Below are positions 22,882 through 29,054 of a DNA stretch of 64,000 nucleotides, one piece after another. A model generated the notes under the pieces. It saw nothing but the letters and a program-made list of their open reading frames with translations, did no database searches and was not told where the DNA came from. Every line of letters begins with the position of its first letter. Position 1 is the first letter of the stretch. A program made the translations under genes and the position numbers. Source of the DNA: Candidatus Wolfebacteria bacterium GW2011_GWA1_44_24 (GTDB taxonomy: Bacteria; Patescibacteriota; Minisyncoccia; UBA6257; UBA9933); NCBI GenBank assembly GCA_001001115.1, contig LCIO01000001.1:71501-135500 (forward strand). Reading direction: 5' to 3'.

Positions 22882-24000
22882 TTATTTTTTATCTTTTAAT
22901 TTTTCCGGCAAAAAACTGTCTTTGGAGTATTTTTCGTACTCCTTGCCGTACCCCAATTCTTTCATTAACTTAGTTTCAGGATTGCGCAAATTTAAAGGAA
23001 TAGGCAGGTTGCCAAATTTTTTAACATCCGCCATCGCCTCCATATACGCCTCATAGGCGCTCCTGTCTTTTTTACATTGACACAAATATGCGACTCCATG
23101 CGCCAAGTTAATTCCGCATTCCGGCAAGCCGATTATCTCCACCGCCCTAAAAACATCATTTGCCACCATAAGAGCCGCCGGCTGAGCCAAACCGACATCT
23201 TCGCTGGCAAAAATAACCATCCGTCGGGCAATAAATTTCGGGTCCTCTCCGGCGTCAATCATCCGCGCCAAATAATATAAAGCCGCGTCCGATTGGCCGG
23301 CTCTCATGCTTTTAATAAAAGCTGAAATTGTATTGTAATGCTCCTCTCCTTTTTTATCATAACGCAGAAACTTTGATTGCAAAGCATTCTTCAAATTATC
23401 AACCGTGATTTTTCCGTATAAGCTATTTGTATTTTCGAGTATCGTAATCGCCTGTCTTGCGTCGCCATTTGCCATATTTATCAGCCAATCGCGCGTTTCT
23501 TTGTCCATCTTAAAACCGACGCGCTTTATAATTTTTGCCATCTCTTCGTCTGATAAAGAGTTTAAAATAAAAACGCGGCAACGAGAAAGAAGCGGAGAAA
23601 TAACTTCAAAACTGGGATTCTCCGTGGTAGCGCCGATTAAAGTAATTTTACCGTTTTCCGCAAAAGGCAATAAATAATCCTGTTGGGCTTTATTAAAGCG
23701 GTGGATTTCATCCAAAAATAAAACCTTTGGCTTGCCCCAAGAATTTTCTTCAATAGCGCGTTTAATGTCTTCTTTGCCGGCCGAAACCGCGGAAAGCTCG
23801 TAGATTTGAGCGTCAAGAGCGCTCGCGTATATTTTCGCCAAAGTTGTTTTTCCGCTCCCCGGCGGACCCCACAAAATAAACGAAAAAAGGTGTTTGTTTT
23901 TAACGGCAATATTCAACGGCTTATTTTCCCCAACCAAATGCTCCTGTCCGATAAATTCTTTTAGAGTTTTAGGCCTGATTTTTGACGCCAATGGTTCCAT
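22882..24000 (-). CDS. rarA: replication-associated recombination protein A (AAA+ ATPase)
   Basis: FIGQEHLVGENKPL, Walker A GPPGSGKTTLA, Walker B VLFLDEIHRFNK, and a MgsA-type C-terminal domain. Confidence 0.8.
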   Translation of the reverse strand: MEPLASKIRPKTLKEFIGQEHLVGENKPLNIAVKNKHLFSFILWGPPGSGKTTLAKIYASALDAQIYELSAVSAGKEDIKRAIEENSWGKPKVLFLDEIHRFNKAQQDYLLPFAENGKITLIGATTENPSFEVISPLLSRCRVFILNSLSDEEMAKIIKRVGFKMDKETRDWLINMANGDARQAITILENTNSLYGKITVDNLKNALQSKFLRYDKKGEEHYNTISAFIKSMRAGQSDAALYYLARMIDAGEDPKFIARRMVIFASEDVGLAQPAALMVANDVFRAVEIIGLPECGINLAHGVAYLCQCKKDRSAYEAYMEAMADVKKFGNLPIPLNLRNPETKLMKELGYGKEYEKYSKDSFLPEKLKDKK

Positions 24001-24307
24001 ACGCCTTTATACTACTATCAAAACTCCTCTTTATCAAAGAAAAACTTGTGGTTCGCACTATTGTTTGAAAAAACTCCCGTTTGGAAGTTTTGCGCTCGAA
24101 CCTGTGAAAAAGCCCACCAATAAAGAGAAAAGTGCCGCTTTTCGCGATATTCATCCTATTTGGCTCCACACCCTGAACGAAATCCGAACGCATTTTCGGG
24201 AAACCCCCGACGAATGAAGCCGCCCCGCCGCCGCTCGCTAACGCTCGCCAGCCAGCAAAAAAGTTTTCTCTGCATTTCTGATTTTGCACGCGCCGGATTT
24301 TTTCTTC

Positions 24308-24488
24308 TAAAAGGAAAAGAAAACTTTTTTGCTGGGTTCTGCTCTCAACGAGCAGGCGGCGGGGCTGGCCTCTTTTGTATTCGCTCGGACGACTCGGCAT
24401 TACTCCCGACGACTCGGCATTACTCCCCCCCCCCAACCCCCTCCTGCCGAGCCATCCTCGCTTCGGCAAAAGGATTTTTTGGCGGCGG
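24308..24488. repeat. left arm of a GC-rich inverted repeat pair (about 181 nt)
   Basis: It is about 95 percent identical to the reverse complement of 29168-29356. It contains a 20 nt tandem duplication (GACGACTCGGCATTACTCCC x2) and a C(10-11) homopolymer, and it is embedded in an otherwise AT-rich genome. Confidence 0.85.
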
Positions 24489-24512
24489 ATAGTGTCCTGT
24501 GGATAATTCCCC

Positions 24513-24540
24513 CTTGATTGAACTTATACGTTTTGTATAA
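24513..24540 (+). promoter_or_regulatory. sigma70-like promoter TTGATT-16-TATAAT facing into the cassette
   Basis: TTGATT at about 24513-18 and TATAAT at about 24535-40, immediately inside the left inverted repeat, reading toward the structured leader and the XRE-RT-MTase genes. Confidence 0.4.
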
Positions 24541-24544
24541 TACT

Positions 24545-25060
24545 AAGTAGGACGGTTGCAGTTTAAAAATCAATTCGCGCGAGATCGGTTATCACTTCGA
24601 AGATTCTAGATCATTCTCTGTTATTGAGAATATCTGACCTCTCCTGTTTTGACAAGGAGTGGACCTTGCCCCGACATGTATATACATGTGTGCCCTATGC
24701 TTCATGTAATCCTTGAGGGACAAGTTAAGTCAAGTTGCTTTAGGCGTTGAGCTTAATGCTTCACTTGCACAGGGACTGCCATAACCTCACGGTTACTGGT
24801 ATTACCGGAAGGTTTTTATCGAAAACTGATAACCGTGAGGAGTTGGTGTGTTCCGCGTAGTAAATTAAAGGTCAATTATTAACCGTCCCCTTTAACTAAA
24901 AACACATGGAGCAAACAATGAAACACCAAAATCCAATTGCTGAATTGTGCCTTCCGTATAAAGGGGCGATTATCATTTATGAAGTGGTTGAGGTGCTTAC
25001 GGATAATTTTACAAATTATCCGTATCCTCAAAGACCTTCTGCGGTAATCGCCCCTTAGTC
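24545..25060 (+). ncRNA. about 520 nt highly structured leader / candidate ncRNA upstream of the XRE-RT operon (possible retron-like msr/msd region)
   Basis: No long ORF. It has a perfect 16 nt palindrome ACATGTATATACATGT (24673-24688). A long hairpin has an 11 bp perfect stem CCTCACGGTTA / TAACCGTGAGG (24784-24839) enclosing a nested GTTTT-TATCG-AAAAC hairpin, plus several further stem-loops. It lies between the promoter and the XRE start. Confidence 0.3.
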
Positions 25061-25067
25061 GTTCTAT

Positions 25068-25394
25068 ATGTATACATTTCCTGATTTAATCAAAAAAATT
25101 AGAGACGAAGCTGGTTTAACTCAAGCCGAATTTGCAAAAGCACTCGGCGTATCTGCTGTGCTTATTGCAATGGTAGAAACTGGTCAAAAAGAAGTTTCAA
25201 AAAATTTGCTTATTAAAATTGCTGAATTATTAAATGTTCATCCTTCATCAATAACTCCGTTTCTGTTTATAGATAGAGAGAAATTCAGTAAAGACCCTTC
25301 AGCAATAGATAAAAAATTTATTGAATGGGGGGAGAAAATGCAAACGCACTTAATAAAAGATCGGGCGAAACTCCTCAAAAAATATGCAAACTAG
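25068..25394 (+). CDS. XRE-family HTH transcriptional regulator
   Basis: 108 aa with the HTH_3 motif LTQAEFAKALGVSAVLIAMVETGQKEVSKNLLIKIAELLNV. The start codon sits within the palindrome ATGTATACAT, and the 3' end overlaps the RT start by 11 nt. Confidence 0.7.
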   Translation: MYTFPDLIKKIRDEAGLTQAEFAKALGVSAVLIAMVETGQKEVSKNLLIKIAELLNVHPSSITPFLFIDREKFSKDPSAIDKKFIEWGEKMQTHLIKDRAKLLKKYAN

Positions 25395-26310
25395 TAGATA
25401 CCCAAAACTTTACATACGGAGCAAGAACGAACTGGCAAAACATTTAAGCCATAGTAAGTTTCCGAAAGAGGAGGCGTTGGCTTTAATAAACGACACTCTT
25501 AAAAACTTTAACAAATATTGGAAAGATAACGAATATAAATCAGAACCAGAAAAAGAAAAATTTGTCAGAAGTGCGAAGGGCACACCACTAGGGAGGCTTT
25601 TAGATAACATTAACAAGTCTGTTCTTGCCCCACATGATAAAATGCTCCCCGTTTTTATATTTGGCGGTGTGAAAAATATGAACCATGCGAAAGCGGCAAA
25701 GTATTTACTCGGGAGAAAGCGAAAACGAACCTCTCTAAAATTAGATATAGCTCGCTTCTTTGAACAAATAAGTGAAGAAAGAGTTTATCACTTCCTCCAT
25801 GACAAGTGCGCGTGTAGTAAAAGGGCCGCAAAATTACTTGCAGGTTTTTGTTGTGTACCTAAGGGGCACAAGGGATCCGGTTTTGAATATAAAACGATAG
25901 CTCGCGGATTTGCCACATCCTCACGTCTTGCCATCTGGTGCAATTTAGACACTTTTATCAGGCTGGATCGTCTTGTTCAAAAACGACTTAAAGGGAAAGA
26001 CGCTCGTATCGCTATTTATGTTGATGATATTGGAATAACTGCTAGCAGAGTATCAAAAGAAGAAATGAAAAAGTTATCTGACGAAATTACAAAGCTTCTA
26101 CTAAATGCAGACAGAAACCAAAGATTGCCGATAAATGAGAAAAAGACAAAAATATCTTCCCACGAGGAGGGTATAGAACATCTTGGCTTGCGGTTATACA
26201 GAAATAGATTGTCTGTTGGCGCAAAAACAAAATCAAAAATAGATAGGGCAAGGAATAAAAGTGAACGCAAGCCACTGATTAGATACAAGCATTATGTTGA
26301 GAAAATCTGA
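25384..26310 (+). CDS. reverse transcriptase, retron-like (308 aa)
   Basis: RT motifs LKLDIARFFEQI (motif 2, compare Ec86 LNIDLEDFFPSL), TIARGFATSSRLAIWCNL (motif 4), AIYVDDIGITA (YxDD motif 5), LPINEKKTKI (motif 6, compare Ec86 LVINSKKTCI) and EHLGLRL (motif 7 position). Its size fits retron RTs. Confidence 0.8.
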   Translation: MQTSRYPKLYIRSKNELAKHLSHSKFPKEEALALINDTLKNFNKYWKDNEYKSEPEKEKFVRSAKGTPLGRLLDNINKSVLAPHDKMLPVFIFGGVKNMNHAKAAKYLLGRKRKRTSLKLDIARFFEQISEERVYHFLHDKCACSKRAAKLLAGFCCVPKGHKGSGFEYKTIARGFATSSRLAIWCNLDTFIRLDRLVQKRLKGKDARIAIYVDDIGITASRVSKEEMKKLSDEITKLLLNADRNQRLPINEKKTKISSHEEGIEHLGLRLYRNRLSVGAKTKSKIDRARNKSERKPLIRYKHYVEKI

Positions 26311-26318
26311 TTGCTTGT

Positions 26319-27956
26319 ATGGAAAACTTTGTGTATACTAAAGTTAGCGAGAAAATTATGACCCCCGGTTACGAAAACGATTTAGAGAACGAATATTCAA
26401 AAACTGTCGACCTAGAGCATAGGCGTGCTTTTGGGCAATTCTTTACCCCCTTTAAAATTGCAAAGTTTATGTCGGAGTGGGTTTTAGATAGTGAAAAACA
26501 GGAAATGGAGGTTTTAGATCCAGCCGCGGGCTTTGGGATTTTCCCTCGCGTAATGTCTTCCTTTAATAAGCGAAAAAAAATTAACTTTGACCTCTGGGAG
26601 ATAGACGAAAACATCGCAAAAAAACTAAAAGATGTTATACAAGAAATTAAAATGGAGGCGGTGATACATCAAGCAGATTTTCTAAAAAATGGCTGGGACA
26701 AAAAATATGACGGTATTATTGCAAATCCGCCATATTTCAAACACCACTACATAAATGAAAAAGAGAAAGTTTTTCAGGAAATTTGTCTGCGAACATACTT
26801 TAGATTTAGTATTCAAACTAATATTTACTGCTGGTTTTTAATTAAAGCTATAAATTTACTTGATAAAGGGGGGAGGTTAGCATTTATTGTGCCAAGTGAA
26901 TTTTTTAATGCGAACTATGGTGAAAAAGTTAAAGAGTATCTAAAACAATGTGGTGTTGTCCTTCATTTTATCAGCGTTAATTTTGAGGAAAATGTTTTTG
27001 ATAATGCACTGACTACATCAGTAATTATTCTTGCCGAGAAAAGTCCACAGAAGCATGAAAGTATAAATTTTTACACAGTGCATAATGTGAAAGAACTCGT
27101 TTCTGTAAAAGATTTTCTCAACAAACACCCAAAAAAGACCTTCAAGATTGCTGACCTAAATCCTAAAACAAAATGGAGAAATTATTTTAATGGCGATAAA
27201 GATATATTCTCGAAAGAACTTGTCTCACTTTCGACATTCGGCAAATTTTCTAGGGGCATAGCAACGGGGGCAAATCATTATTTCACACTTTCCTTACCAG
27301 AAGTTGAGGAGCATAAAATATCAAAAAAATGCCTGCGCCCATGTATCACAAAAGCCGTGCACGCGAAAGATATTTACTTTAGTGACGAGCATTTTGATAA
27401 ACTCAGGGAACAAGAAAAGAAAGTTTATTTATTTGATGGGGAAAAATCACAAGAACAAAGTTGTAAAAACTATATTGCACTTGGGGAAAAACAGGGTGTC
27501 AGTCAAAAATATCTTACAAAAAATCGAGATCCGTGGTATGCGCTAGAAAAAAGAGATGTTGCCCCGATTTGGGTAACGGTTTTTGGGAGAAGTGGTTTAA
27601 AATTTGTATGGAACGATTCTTCCTGTATTAACCTAACTTGTTTTCATGCTTTTTATCCTACCGAATTAGGAAAAAACTACCTAGATATATTATTTATTTA
27701 TCTGTATTCAAATACGGCCCAAAAATTATTTGACAGAGAAAAAAGAGAATATGGCGGGGGGCTTGGAAAATTTGAGCCAAACGATCTTAACAAAGCTTTT
27801 GTTGTCGATTTTAGATTGCTCGACAAGAAACAAATCTCTATTTTAGCGAACCTCCAAAGAGATTTTCTCAAATCAGAAAAAAACGAAAGAGAACAATTTT
27901 TGAAAAAAGCTGATGATATTTTTAAACCTCTTGCTCAATCAGTTTTTTCAAAATAG
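26319..27956 (+). CDS. N6-adenine DNA methyltransferase, gamma class (M.TaqI/Eco57I-like) with C-terminal target-recognition domain
   Basis: Motif X FGQFFTP, motif I VLDPAAGFGIF, motif IV IIANPPYF (NPPY), then a ~300 aa variable domain. It starts 8 nt after the RT stop. Confidence 0.85.
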   Translation: MENFVYTKVSEKIMTPGYENDLENEYSKTVDLEHRRAFGQFFTPFKIAKFMSEWVLDSEKQEMEVLDPAAGFGIFPRVMSSFNKRKKINFDLWEIDENIAKKLKDVIQEIKMEAVIHQADFLKNGWDKKYDGIIANPPYFKHHYINEKEKVFQEICLRTYFRFSIQTNIYCWFLIKAINLLDKGGRLAFIVPSEFFNANYGEKVKEYLKQCGVVLHFISVNFEENVFDNALTTSVIILAEKSPQKHESINFYTVHNVKELVSVKDFLNKHPKKTFKIADLNPKTKWRNYFNGDKDIFSKELVSLSTFGKFSRGIATGANHYFTLSLPEVEEHKISKKCLRPCITKAVHAKDIYFSDEHFDKLREQEKKVYLFDGEKSQEQSCKNYIALGEKQGVSQKYLTKNRDPWYALEKRDVAPIWVTVFGRSGLKFVWNDSSCINLTCFHAFYPTELGKNYLDILFIYLYSNTAQKLFDREKREYGGGLGKFEPNDLNKAFVVDFRLLDKKQISILANLQRDFLKSEKNEREQFLKKADDIFKPLAQSVFSK

Positions 27957-28818
27957 CTTCATCAAGTTTTGCCTTGCCACCCTCAAAGCTTACGTGATGA
28001 AGAAGCCTCCCTCCGGCAAGCTCTTTTCTTATACCCAAAAGATTCGGCTCGCCTATATTTTCGCTTATTAAATGACCATTGTTTAAATACATGTGAATGG
28101 TCTCCTTGTACTGATTTTTAGGATTCTTTTCAATAACAAAAGCTAGTGCGTCATTTTTTAAACCGACAACCTTTTTATTTTTGATACCCTTTTCTGAAAT
28201 ATCTGTGTCTCTCAATAATGACAAAATTTCGCTGAACGATATCACATAGATTGCATCAAAAAATACTTGAACGTAAAAATGCGGAACATTAAAAGTATCA
28301 ATCCATTTTAGTACGATCAAAAGATCCTCCACTTTTGGAGTGAAACTCAAAAACGGACGTTCTTTTTTGGCGATAAATTTTTTTGTTAGATATGCGCTAG
28401 ATCGCACTTCAAATCCCGCTGTCGCTTGCGGAACAATTTTTGCAAGTTCTCCATGAGATAATTTACTGATATCGTCACCCCATTCTTTTTTGTAAATTTT
28501 GGGGTCAAATAGTAAAACATCAGGCCTCTTACCGATTGCGTCCAGCTCATCTTGATACTGATTATAAAAGTCTTTGAAGTCGGGGTCTCCAGCAATAATC
28601 TTGTCTGATTTCCCATATCTAACGGGGACTAAATCAAGGTTAGATGCTTTAAGGGAACGAAAGAAAAGCATCTCCGCCCAATCTCCTTGTTCGTTGTGTG
28701 TAAGAAAATCAGAAAATGCTTGCGTGGGTGGTGTTCCTCTCTTGCGTTTCGCTCCCAGATTAACAATATTTGGCGAAATATCCTTCGCAATTTTATGTAT
28801 TTTGTCCTTATAACTCAT
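27922..28818 (-). CDS. putative type II restriction endonuclease (cognate of the methyltransferase)
   Basis: 298 aa with no strong family match. A possible PD...(D/E)xK-like core is PDVLLFD ... GFEVRSS. It is translationally coupled (ATGA overlap) to the upstream C-protein gene, and its 3' end overlaps the convergent MTase by 35 nt. Confidence 0.45.
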   Translation of the reverse strand: MSYKDKIHKIAKDISPNIVNLGAKRKRGTPPTQAFSDFLTHNEQGDWAEMLFFRSLKASNLDLVPVRYGKSDKIIAGDPDFKDFYNQYQDELDAIGKRPDVLLFDPKIYKKEWGDDISKLSHGELAKIVPQATAGFEVRSSAYLTKKFIAKKERPFLSFTPKVEDLLIVLKWIDTFNVPHFYVQVFFDAIYVISFSEILSLLRDTDISEKGIKNKKVVGLKNDALAFVIEKNPKNQYKETIHMYLNNGHLISENIGEPNLLGIRKELAGGRLLHHVSFEGGKAKLDEAILKKLIEQEV

Positions 28819-29054
28819 ATTCCTTTGAAAAAATCAGAGATGCTGATTTTTAGCGCTTTAGAAACTTTTTCGATATTTTCAAGCGTTATGTTCTTTTCTG
28901 CTCGTTCAATCATGCCGATATATGTCCGGTGAACACCGGCGCGTGAGGCTAATTCTTCCTGTGATAAACCTAACCTCGCCCGCTCCTCGCGGACTTTTTT
29001 ACCAAATTTGATAAGGATTTCTCTTTTCATAGTTGATAACTGTAGTATATCCAC
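28815..29054 (-). CDS. controller (C) protein, XRE-family HTH
   Basis: 79 aa; LSQEELASRAGVHRTYIGMIERAEKNITLENIEKVSKAL HTH. It sits immediately upstream of, and overlaps, the putative REase gene, the classic C-R arrangement. Confidence 0.65.
   Translation of the reverse strand: MDILQLSTMKREILIKFGKKVREERARLGLSQEELASRAGVHRTYIGMIERAEKNITLENIEKVSKALKISISDFFKGI

Follow-up and report, generated by a model that had tools for sequence, protein, structure and literature searches.

In canonical retrons, such as Retron-Eco1 (Ec86), the inverted repeats a1 and a2 enclose the msr and msd parts of a non-coding RNA (ncRNA), and a conserved G is found at the 3' edge of a1. For Type VI, alone among the retron types, no ncRNA was known before the preprints of 2025-26. 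In Retron-Vpa2 of Vibrio parahaemolyticus, a hybrid RNA (hyRNA) of ~470 nt combines msr-msd with a translationally repressed toxin, SP, with its ribosome-binding site (RBS) sequestered; a helix-turn-helix (HTH) protein restrains reverse transcription, accumulating multicopy single-stranded DNA (msDNA) derepresses SP, and 7-nt direct repeats, one in an msd loop and one in the riboregulator, are pointed out as a possible basis for pairing between msDNA and riboregulator (Zhang et al., bioRxiv 10.1101/2025.10.22.683967). In the Retron-Sen3/cl2075 lineage, SP acts as a toxin with HTH as its antitoxin, the ncRNA carries inverted repeats at its ends and a long stem whose centre varies, and the SP gene is flanked by a long-range pairing (Garcia-Rodriguez et al., bioRxiv 10.64898/2026.04.27.721009). 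In this study, we have analysed a window of 64,000 nt from Candidatus Wolfebacteria bacterium GW2011_GWA1_44_24 (contig LCIO01000001.1, positions 71,501 to 135,500 of the forward strand), in which a promoter, a leader of ~520 nt, an HTH gene and an overlapping reverse transcriptase (RT) gene follow one another between window positions 24480 and 26310. Taken together, the results indicate that this locus is very probably a Type VI retron (SP toxin, HTH and RT) on the chromosome of a Patescibacteria (Candidate Phyla Radiation, CPR) bacterium and that its leader, known here from sequence alone, is likewise very probably a Type VI hybrid RNA holding both an msr-msd-like ncRNA and the toxin open reading frame (ORF).

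The likeness to Retron-Vpa2 covers the order of promoter, structured msr-msd, toxin ORF, HTH and RT, the size of the transcript region (~450-520 nt), the buried toxin RBS, the folding of the 3' part onto the 5' part, the hydrophobic toxin helix, and the placing of one conserved 7-nt element in an msd loop and another 7-nt element in the toxin control region. The two 7-mers are, however, reverse complements of each other here, whereas those of Vpa2 are, by the published description, direct repeats; the toxin has 20-31 aa in this family and lacks an N-terminal domain, compared with the 55-aa SP of Vpa2; the ncRNA exceeds the Vpa2 one in length and has two hypervariable hairpins; and the host belongs to the CPR instead of the Proteobacteria. 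With Retron-Sen3 the locus shares the SP-HTH-RT order, terminal inverted repeats, a long internal stem-loop with a non-conserved centre, a sequestered SP RBS, long-range pairing flanking the SP gene, and RNA structure that covaries within the SP coding sequence. The Sen3 system differs in its larger SP (79 aa), in its constitutive single-stranded DNA (ssDNA), and in its IR1-IR2 stem, which is without significant covariation, whereas the helix around SP covaries strongly here.

Compared with the published Type VI examples, the locus is distinct in four respects, as far as can be predicted: the inverted 7-mer, the minimal toxin, the overlapping open frame and the DnaA box. A literature text search for hyRNA returned no paper besides the Vpa2 and Sen3 preprints. 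Neither of them describes a kissing or pseudoknot contact, mentions a DnaA box in retron regulation, or includes CPR organisms beyond one Levybacteria example, and the Sen3 preprint mentions neither a loop-to-riboregulator contact nor an overlapping second frame. The hybrid-RNA design would thereby be extended to the Patescibacteria, with their tiny genomes, and to a toxin of minimal size.

Family assignment and fold of the leader

The genes and leader elements described here lie on the + strand unless stated otherwise. The HTH gene (25068..25394) encodes a Cro/C1-type (XRE) protein of 108 aa, for which the top PADLOC model is HTH_VI (4e-14; Pfam HTH_3, 3e-15), and by analogy it would be the Type VI antitoxin or repressor. 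The RT gene (25384..26310) encodes a protein of 308 aa with a YVDD catalytic motif and a Pfam RVT_1 match; its top PADLOC model is RT_VI (1.1e-27, 95 bits), followed by RT_IV (1.9e-17), and nearly all of its top PADLOC matches are retron RT models, placing it in the retron clade. The two genes share 11 nt (25384-25394). A Cro/C1-type HTH gene overlapping the RT start is the Type VI arrangement of the Mestre classification, and it is kept in related loci. In this regard, the first-pass annotation, made from the letters of the window alone, had proposed a retron-type msr/msd ncRNA 5' of the HTH and RT genes and had pointed out that an HTH gene may sit between ncRNA and RT; the protein models and the covarying a1/a2 repeats described below agree with the former, and the latter is the Type VI architecture.

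The RT family comprises several hundred proteins, almost all of them in metagenome-assembled genomes of Patescibacteria. We gathered 121 related loci, throughout which the HTH-RT pair is kept; the HTH gene lies directly upstream of the RT gene in ~100 related loci. A tblastn search with the RT gave no match among plasmid records and distant matches only among phage records, one of them in Pasteurella phage Pmp14, which served as the proteobacterial Type VI comparator; scanning IMG/VR with the Pmp14 RT returned near-identical loci only.

The leader (24545-25067, longest internal ORF 50 aa) has a predicted minimum free energy (MFE) of -161.4 kcal/mol, compared with -128.7 +/- 6.2 kcal/mol for 100 dinucleotide shuffles, none of which folds as well (z = -5.27). 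An RNAalifold consensus was derived from an alignment of 21 graded relatives, with RT identities from 99% to ~56%, and three covariance models (R1, R2 and R3) were searched over all loci. Compensatory changes back nearly every leader helix in about 30-80 related loci: in the three modules, 87-89% of the cells are paired, compared with 31-54% when the partners are slid by 1-3 columns, and the observed covariation score is reached in 0/500 shuffles. The description of the leader as unusually structured is thus confirmed, and the folding and covariance analysis that had been suggested along with it reveals a stable structure that is conserved across homologous loci. With no more than ~30-35/87 loci within reach of the models for the 5' module and the msd module, the msr-msd architecture is documented for the nearer half of the family only; the toxin module and the 7-mer contact, in contrast, apply to almost every locus. 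An Rfam scan of the whole window at the gathering threshold found rRNA and tRNAs only, and our covariance models did not detect the leader of the proteobacterial Type VI locus of phage Pmp14.

The msr-msd-like part and the toxin control region

The 5' two-thirds of the leader has the anatomy of a retron ncRNA. It is bounded by a perfect 8-bp inverted repeat made up of the arms a1 (GGACGGTT, 24550..24557) and a2 (AACCGTCC, 24881..24888), which occurs in 22 sequence variants with compensatory changes (GGACAGU/ACUGUCC, GGUGAUU/AAUCACC and GGGUGU/ACACCC among them), a level of pairing that 0/2000 arm shuffles reach. Directly 3' of a1, position 24558 is a G in 28 of the 30 loci with a letter in that column, usually in the context (A/U)GC, and the anatomy of canonical retrons suggests that this is the priming (branching) guanosine; terminal repeats of this kind, with a conserved branch G, were what the first-pass annotation had advised looking for. 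Two msr stem-loops follow, both scored in model R3: stem-loop 1 (24607..24636, UAGAU-C-AUUCUC ... GAGAAU-AUCUG, helix 2) has 11 pairs, of which 8 are changed on both sides, with 89% of the cells paired, and stem-loop 2 (24639..24662, CUCUCC ... GGAG-U-GG, helix 3) has 86% of the cells paired and compensatory CG-to-UA changes. The 5' module as a whole has three helices, one of them a small hairpin at 24585-24600, and its paired cells amount to 86.6% (31-54% when slid; 0/500 shuffles). The msr hairpins and a retron-clade RT of ~310 aa are features of Retron-Eco1 as well, but the ncRNA lies here 5' of two ORFs and not directly before the RT, the effector would be encoded within the same RNA, and the expected logic is inverted, with msDNA activating the toxin rather than neutralising it.

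The conserved msd domain (24772..24854, model R2) consists of an outer helix (24772-80/24845-54), a perfect 11-bp stem (24785-24795/24830-24840), small inner hairpins and a 34-nt loop. Among its 20 pairs, 19 are changed on both sides, with 89% of the cells paired and 0/500 shuffles as good. Since this domain is the structured element nearest to a2, it would presumably be the first to be copied by the RT, and the 11-bp hairpin is plausibly part of the template. The long hairpin that the first-pass annotation saw as a possible msd stem belongs to this conserved domain, the loop of which enters into a long-range contact; the 11-bp stem and the 16-nt palindrome of the first-pass annotation both exist, each one base higher than given there.

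That long-range contact is the strongest single result, and it joins the predicted ncRNA to the predicted toxin control region. The 7-mer CGGAAGG in the msd loop (24806..24812) can pair with the riboregulator 7-mer CCUUCCG (24950..24956), which lies 4 nt 5' of the helix that sequesters the Shine-Dalgarno sequence. In an alignment-free test, the exact reverse complement of the riboregulator 7-mer was found 121-151 nt upstream in 74/79 loci, with 2.3 expected by chance, and a direct copy of it upstream in 0/79; the direct repeats described for Vpa2 are thus replaced here by inverted ones. There are 27 distinct 7-mers among the loci; in the model alignments, 9 variants are represented and 100% paired, and, of the five exceptions, at least two need only a G-U pair (L083 and L088, with CGGATGT in the loop and GCATCCG in the riboregulator). 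The ~80 relatives therefore amount to a natural mutagenesis series, in which 27 co-varying versions of one 7-bp contact pin a physical link between the presumed RT template and the control of toxin translation, with a polarity opposite to that of the published model. Among four proteobacterial loci, two have direct 7-mers at the SP initiation region, AACAAGT in Pmp14 and AACATGA in Photobacterium. In Pmp14 (OR544131.1; L122:1505-1975), the Type VI leader is unannotated and holds a 50-aa SP (1768-1920); AACAAGT occurs twice, once in the loop of a hairpin (1610) and once (1761) in the interval from the Shine-Dalgarno sequence to the ATG, and a 12-bp inverted repeat extends across the -10 region.

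The Shine-Dalgarno-sequestering helix has 14 bp, with its 5' arm, which contains the Shine-Dalgarno-like AAGGGG, at 24961..24974 and its 3' arm, which spans the toxin stop codon, at 25043..25056; in the window it includes a perfect 12-bp inverted repeat. Scored in 65 loci as helix 1 of model R1, it shows 12 core pairs, 10 of them changed on both sides, with 94% of the cells paired. A further long-range helix, predicted by RNAalifold, brings together CAAUUCG (24571..24577) and UGAAUUG (24941..24947), with compensatory pairs, 16 variants, 88% pairing and 0/2000 shuffles as good. Since 24941-47 pairs with the 5' end, 24950-56 with the msd loop and 24961-74 with the 3' end of the RNA, the toxin initiation region is clamped by three adjacent long-range helices. 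At the level of sequence and covariation, this matches the published hyRNA, in which the RBS of SP is sequestered and the 3' part anneals back to the 5' part. In the MFE fold, the 5' end (24547-55) is paired with 25059-67; this pairing was rejected, as it shows no covariation and 415/2000 shuffles are as good.

The toxin candidate, ORF-B (24979..25047), encodes the 22-aa peptide MKWLRCLRIILQIIRILKDLLR, a basic amphipathic helix. Its ATG is present in ~81/87 loci, its codon-position entropies of 1.37/0.76/1.62 bits make the third position the most variable, and GGAGG is found 6-7 nt before the ATG in many loci. Across loci, the peptide (20-31 aa) is a conserved basic amphipathic helix that resembles the C-terminal helices of the SPs in the Type VI loci of Pasteurella phage Pmp14, Photobacterium, Hafnia and Enterobacter. 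On the basis of this coding signature, conserved ATG, GGAGG and helix, we take frame B to be the SP toxin, here reduced to the helix alone; a small helical SP with a hydrophobic C-terminal helix, of predicted toxicity, encoded 5' of HTH is a feature of Type VI. The coding sequence itself contains a 12-bp hairpin (24998..25024, R1 helix 3), perfect in the window, with 11/12 pairs changed on both sides and 85% of the cells paired. As the 3' part encodes a toxin under a covarying helix that sequesters its Shine-Dalgarno sequence, the leader RNA would be a hybrid coding/non-coding transcript; that it is one transcript with ncRNA and toxin ORF is suggested by the single promoter. The term non-coding, used for the whole leader in the first-pass annotation, is only partly right, as the 3' third has conserved small ORFs; the coding of small proteins, which had been named as an observation that would speak against the ncRNA, applies in part, to the stretch that encodes SP.

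The toxin ORF is spanned entirely by another frame, ORF-A (24906..25058, with ATG at 24906 or 24918 and a TAG stop at 25056-58), which ends 9 nt before the HTH ATG. In every locus, an ORF of 46-60 codons in frame A stops 4-20 nt short of the HTH start; its peptide is poorly conserved. The frame is stop-free in 94% of the loci, compared with the 30% expected under full synonymous recoding of frame B and the 37% under third-position-only recoding, figures that overstate independence because the loci are related; it is broken in at least 5/87 loci, and close relatives lack its start codon. That the frame is kept open suggests a need for ribosomes to reach the HTH start by reading through; frame A is possibly a leader ORF coupled to translation of the HTH antitoxin. 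In the hok/mok/sok system of plasmid R1, the mRNA folds back over a long range and thereby silences the ORF of a small hydrophobic toxin, and a second ORF, mok, overlaps that ORF in another frame, so that its translation could control that of the toxin. Frame A would be mok-like in this sense; in contrast to hok/mok/sok, no antisense RNA is involved here, the controller would be a retron ncRNA with RT and HTH, and the sequences are unrelated. The 50-aa ORF-A itself was rejected as the toxin, since variation is lowest at its third codon positions and its start codon is not conserved.

In one relative (L001, 3350-4000; leader 89% identical), the stretch equivalent to 24976-25373, that is, the toxin helix and nearly the whole HTH gene, is missing, and the ncRNA, RT and methylase are retained; this looks like, and fits, a toxin and its antitoxin having been lost together. 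The heptamer TAGTCGT (25056-25062), located between the Shine-Dalgarno helix (3' arm) and the start of the HTH gene, shows little or no variation among divergent loci; it begins with the frame-A stop codon TAG, it is unlike a Shine-Dalgarno sequence, and a pairing partner was looked for and none found.

Between the msr hairpins and the msd domain, two hairpins are predicted in most of the 21 homologues, with interiors that cannot be aligned and lengths that vary. Hairpin 1 (24665..24724) has a conserved base, CUUG/CAAG, that covaries (CCUUG/CAAGG to ACUCG/UGAGU) and a hypervariable interior; hairpin 2 (24729..24768), defined by the same comparison of 21 leaders, has a conserved base, CAAG/CUUG, and a variable tip. 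For retron-based genome-engineering tools, such hypervariable hairpins mark positions that would tolerate inserts. The 16-nt palindrome ACATGTATATACATGT (24674-24689) was rejected as a conserved element, since it sits inside hypervariable hairpin 1 and is restricted to close relatives.

Some additional pairings involve repeated motifs. CGGUUA-type repeats (24586-24594, 24790-24796 and 24967-24975) and their complements UAACCG/UAAUCG (24827-24835 and 25043-25051) are found in the msr, in both arms of the msd stem and in both arms of the Shine-Dalgarno helix, and in L004 and L057 every copy carries the matching C-to-U or G-to-A change. The msr segment CGGUUAUCA (24586..24594) forms an inverted repeat with 24827-24835, with 22 variants and 85% pairing, compared with 77% in shuffles (0/2000 reach the observed value); this alternative helix uses the 3' arm of the msd stem, and it is mutually exclusive with the 11-bp stem. 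Whereas this msr:msd pairing covaries, that of the msr with the Shine-Dalgarno-helix arm does not, and the pairing of 24586-93 with the 3' arm of that helix was rejected (1596/2000 shuffles as good). For the msr motif UUCGA (24596-600) and UCGAA in the msd loop (24819-23), several variants are complementary (UCAA/UUGA, UCGGA/UCCGA and UCGG/CCGA), and with 346/1000 shuffles as good the pairing falls short of significance. In L004 (3384-3519) and L057 (1387-1523), the large msd loop is GGUGUUCGAAUCCGAC and resembles a tRNA T-arm (GUUCGAAUC).

Switching models and rival explanations

The arrangement of the contacts suggests how the system might work. In the resting state, the HTH protein would repress the promoter through the palindrome TATAC-N5-GTATA and, by analogy with Retron-Vpa2 and Retron-Sen3, would also restrain the RT, the toxin, or both. 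Upon infection, the RT would prime at G24558 on the a1/a2 duplex and copy leftwards from ~24880, just 5' of a2, through the conserved msd domain, so that the loop 7-mer would end up in an RNA-DNA duplex or be removed by RNase H and its contact to 24950-56 would be lost. The clamp would then weaken, the Shine-Dalgarno sequence would open, the toxin would be translated, and growth of the infected cell would stop. The synthesis of complementary DNA (cDNA) would thus be sensed in cis, through the loss of an RNA-RNA tertiary pair, a logic that, if true, differs both from the msDNA-in-trans model of Vpa2 and from the post-translational one of Sen3. We put forward this specific switch, the loss of the 7-bp contact on copying, as a tentative model with somewhat less than an even chance of being right. 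A fuller version, in which the 7-bp pair is stacked between the two other clamping long-range helices and its loss frees a minimal 22-aa toxin, would combine sensing in cis with a frame-A coupling of ribosome traffic to the HTH gene and with an input of the replication state through DnaA; we give it slightly lower odds still.

A number of observations weigh against the assignment of the locus or against the proposed switch. The RT_VI score is modest, 95 bits as compared with 294 bits for the Type VI RT of the Pasteurella phage; a phmmer search with the RT sequence against solved structures gave no match at 1e-3; and an Rfam E-value scan of 23800-26500 returned chance matches only, with no family. 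In this window, AAGGGG lies 12 nt from the ORF-B ATG, which is a long spacing. The reverse-transcribed stretch is placed solely by its position next to a2, the 7-bp contact could either repress or promote translation of the toxin, and a second overlapping frame that is kept open complicates the translation logic. Moreover, six Type VI retrons, including one from a Candidatus Levybacteria (CPR), yielded no ssDNA that could be detected under basal conditions in E. coli, and control in Sen3 is reported to be post-translational and independent of the ssDNA level (bioRxiv 10.64898/2026.04.27.721009).

Alternatively, the locus might work exactly as proposed for Retron-Vpa2, with free msDNA opening the riboregulator in trans and the 7-bp complementarity being a folding or scaffold contact only. 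In Vpa2, SP is induced by msDNA supplied in trans (bioRxiv 10.1101/2025.10.22.683967), two of the four proteobacterial loci, Pmp14 and Photobacterium, carry direct 7-mer repeats, and a cDNA of 24827-35 would, by inspection, show partial complementarity to the Shine-Dalgarno helix (3' arm). In the CPR loci, however, the direct copy is absent (0/79) and the inverted one is found in 74. Here the msDNA would have the same sense as the riboregulator 7-mer and therefore could not pair with that motif; acting in trans, it could only titrate msd loops. Pairing between msr 24586-93 and the 3' arm of the Shine-Dalgarno helix also lacks covariation, and we consider the unmodified Vpa2 mechanism unlikely for this family.

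It is improbable that the leader is only a cis-acting riboregulator within a toxin-antitoxin cassette of the hok/mok kind, holding no RT template, and that the role of the RT is non-templating or unrelated. In agreement with this idea, the Shine-Dalgarno sequence of the toxin is sequestered by long-range pairing and the overlapping frame is open as in hok/mok. The HTH-SP module of Sen3 is reported to be independent of RT and ncRNA, and a CPR Type VI retron is reported to have given no ssDNA in E. coli (bioRxiv 10.64898/2026.04.27.721009). Nevertheless, the 5' two-thirds has the covarying a1/a2, the G after a1 and the msr-like hairpins of a retron, the leader always adjoins a retron-clade RT, and the msd loop covaries with the toxin control region, joining both halves of the RNA; in addition, defence by Vpa2 requires RT catalysis (bioRxiv 10.1101/2025.10.22.683967). 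Finally, the view in which the XRE protein serves the adjacent restriction-modification (R-M) system as controller (C) protein, with the leader as a regulatory 5' untranslated region and the RT as an unrelated insertion, can be set aside as highly improbable: the XRE protein does match R-M Control_protein models (1.5e-7), and a Type II methylase gene starts 9 nt after the RT gene, with an AccI-family endonuclease gene beyond, but HTH_VI scores better (4e-14), the methylase is confined to the five closest relatives whereas the HTH-RT pair occurs in ~100 loci, the R-M system has an HTH gene of its own, and the leader structure covaries together with the HTH-RT pair.

Promoter, neighbouring genes and flanking sequence

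The Type VI hybrid RNA would be transcribed from a sigma-70-type promoter at 24514..24541, with TTGATT (24514), a spacer of 16 nt and TATAAT (to 24541). It agrees with the consensus in 10/12 positions, is the top promoter-like site within 24000-26400, and is conserved in the alignment of 21 leaders. Between the two hexamers lies the palindrome TATAC-N5-GTATA (24525..24539), found in 31/35 of the loci that model R3 matches and, overall, in 62/80, with half-sites that stay constant while the spacer varies (TTT, AAA); it is likely to be the operator of the Cro/C1-type HTH protein. A perfect DnaA-box 9-mer, TGTGGATAA (24498..24506), abuts the -35 hexamer. Of 80 related promoter windows, 28 contain the 9-mer exactly and 43 contain it with no more than one mismatch, in most cases 23-27 nt 5' of the operator palindrome; in control windows of the RT gene, exact matches number 0/87. 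The DnaA box may be an input of a host factor to the promoter.

Directly 3' of the retron, a complete AccI-family Type II R-M system occupies 26319-29054. Its Eco57I-type N6 methylase gene (26319-27956) is followed, on the - strand, by the RE_AccI endonuclease gene (27922-28818) and, upstream of the latter, by a C-protein-like HTH gene (28815-29054). Retron and R-M system together make up a small defence island that adjoins an MgsA/RarA ATPase gene.

On the other side, just 5' of the promoter, a GC-rich island within this AT-rich genome extends over 24200-24470. It has a long inverted repeat (GCCGCCCCGCCGCC ... GGCGGCGGGGC), a poly-C run, and a 20-mer, GACGACTCGGCATTACTCCC, present as two tandem copies at 24388-24427; homology with the relative L001 starts near 24427. 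The island could be a terminator, an insulator or an insertion boundary.

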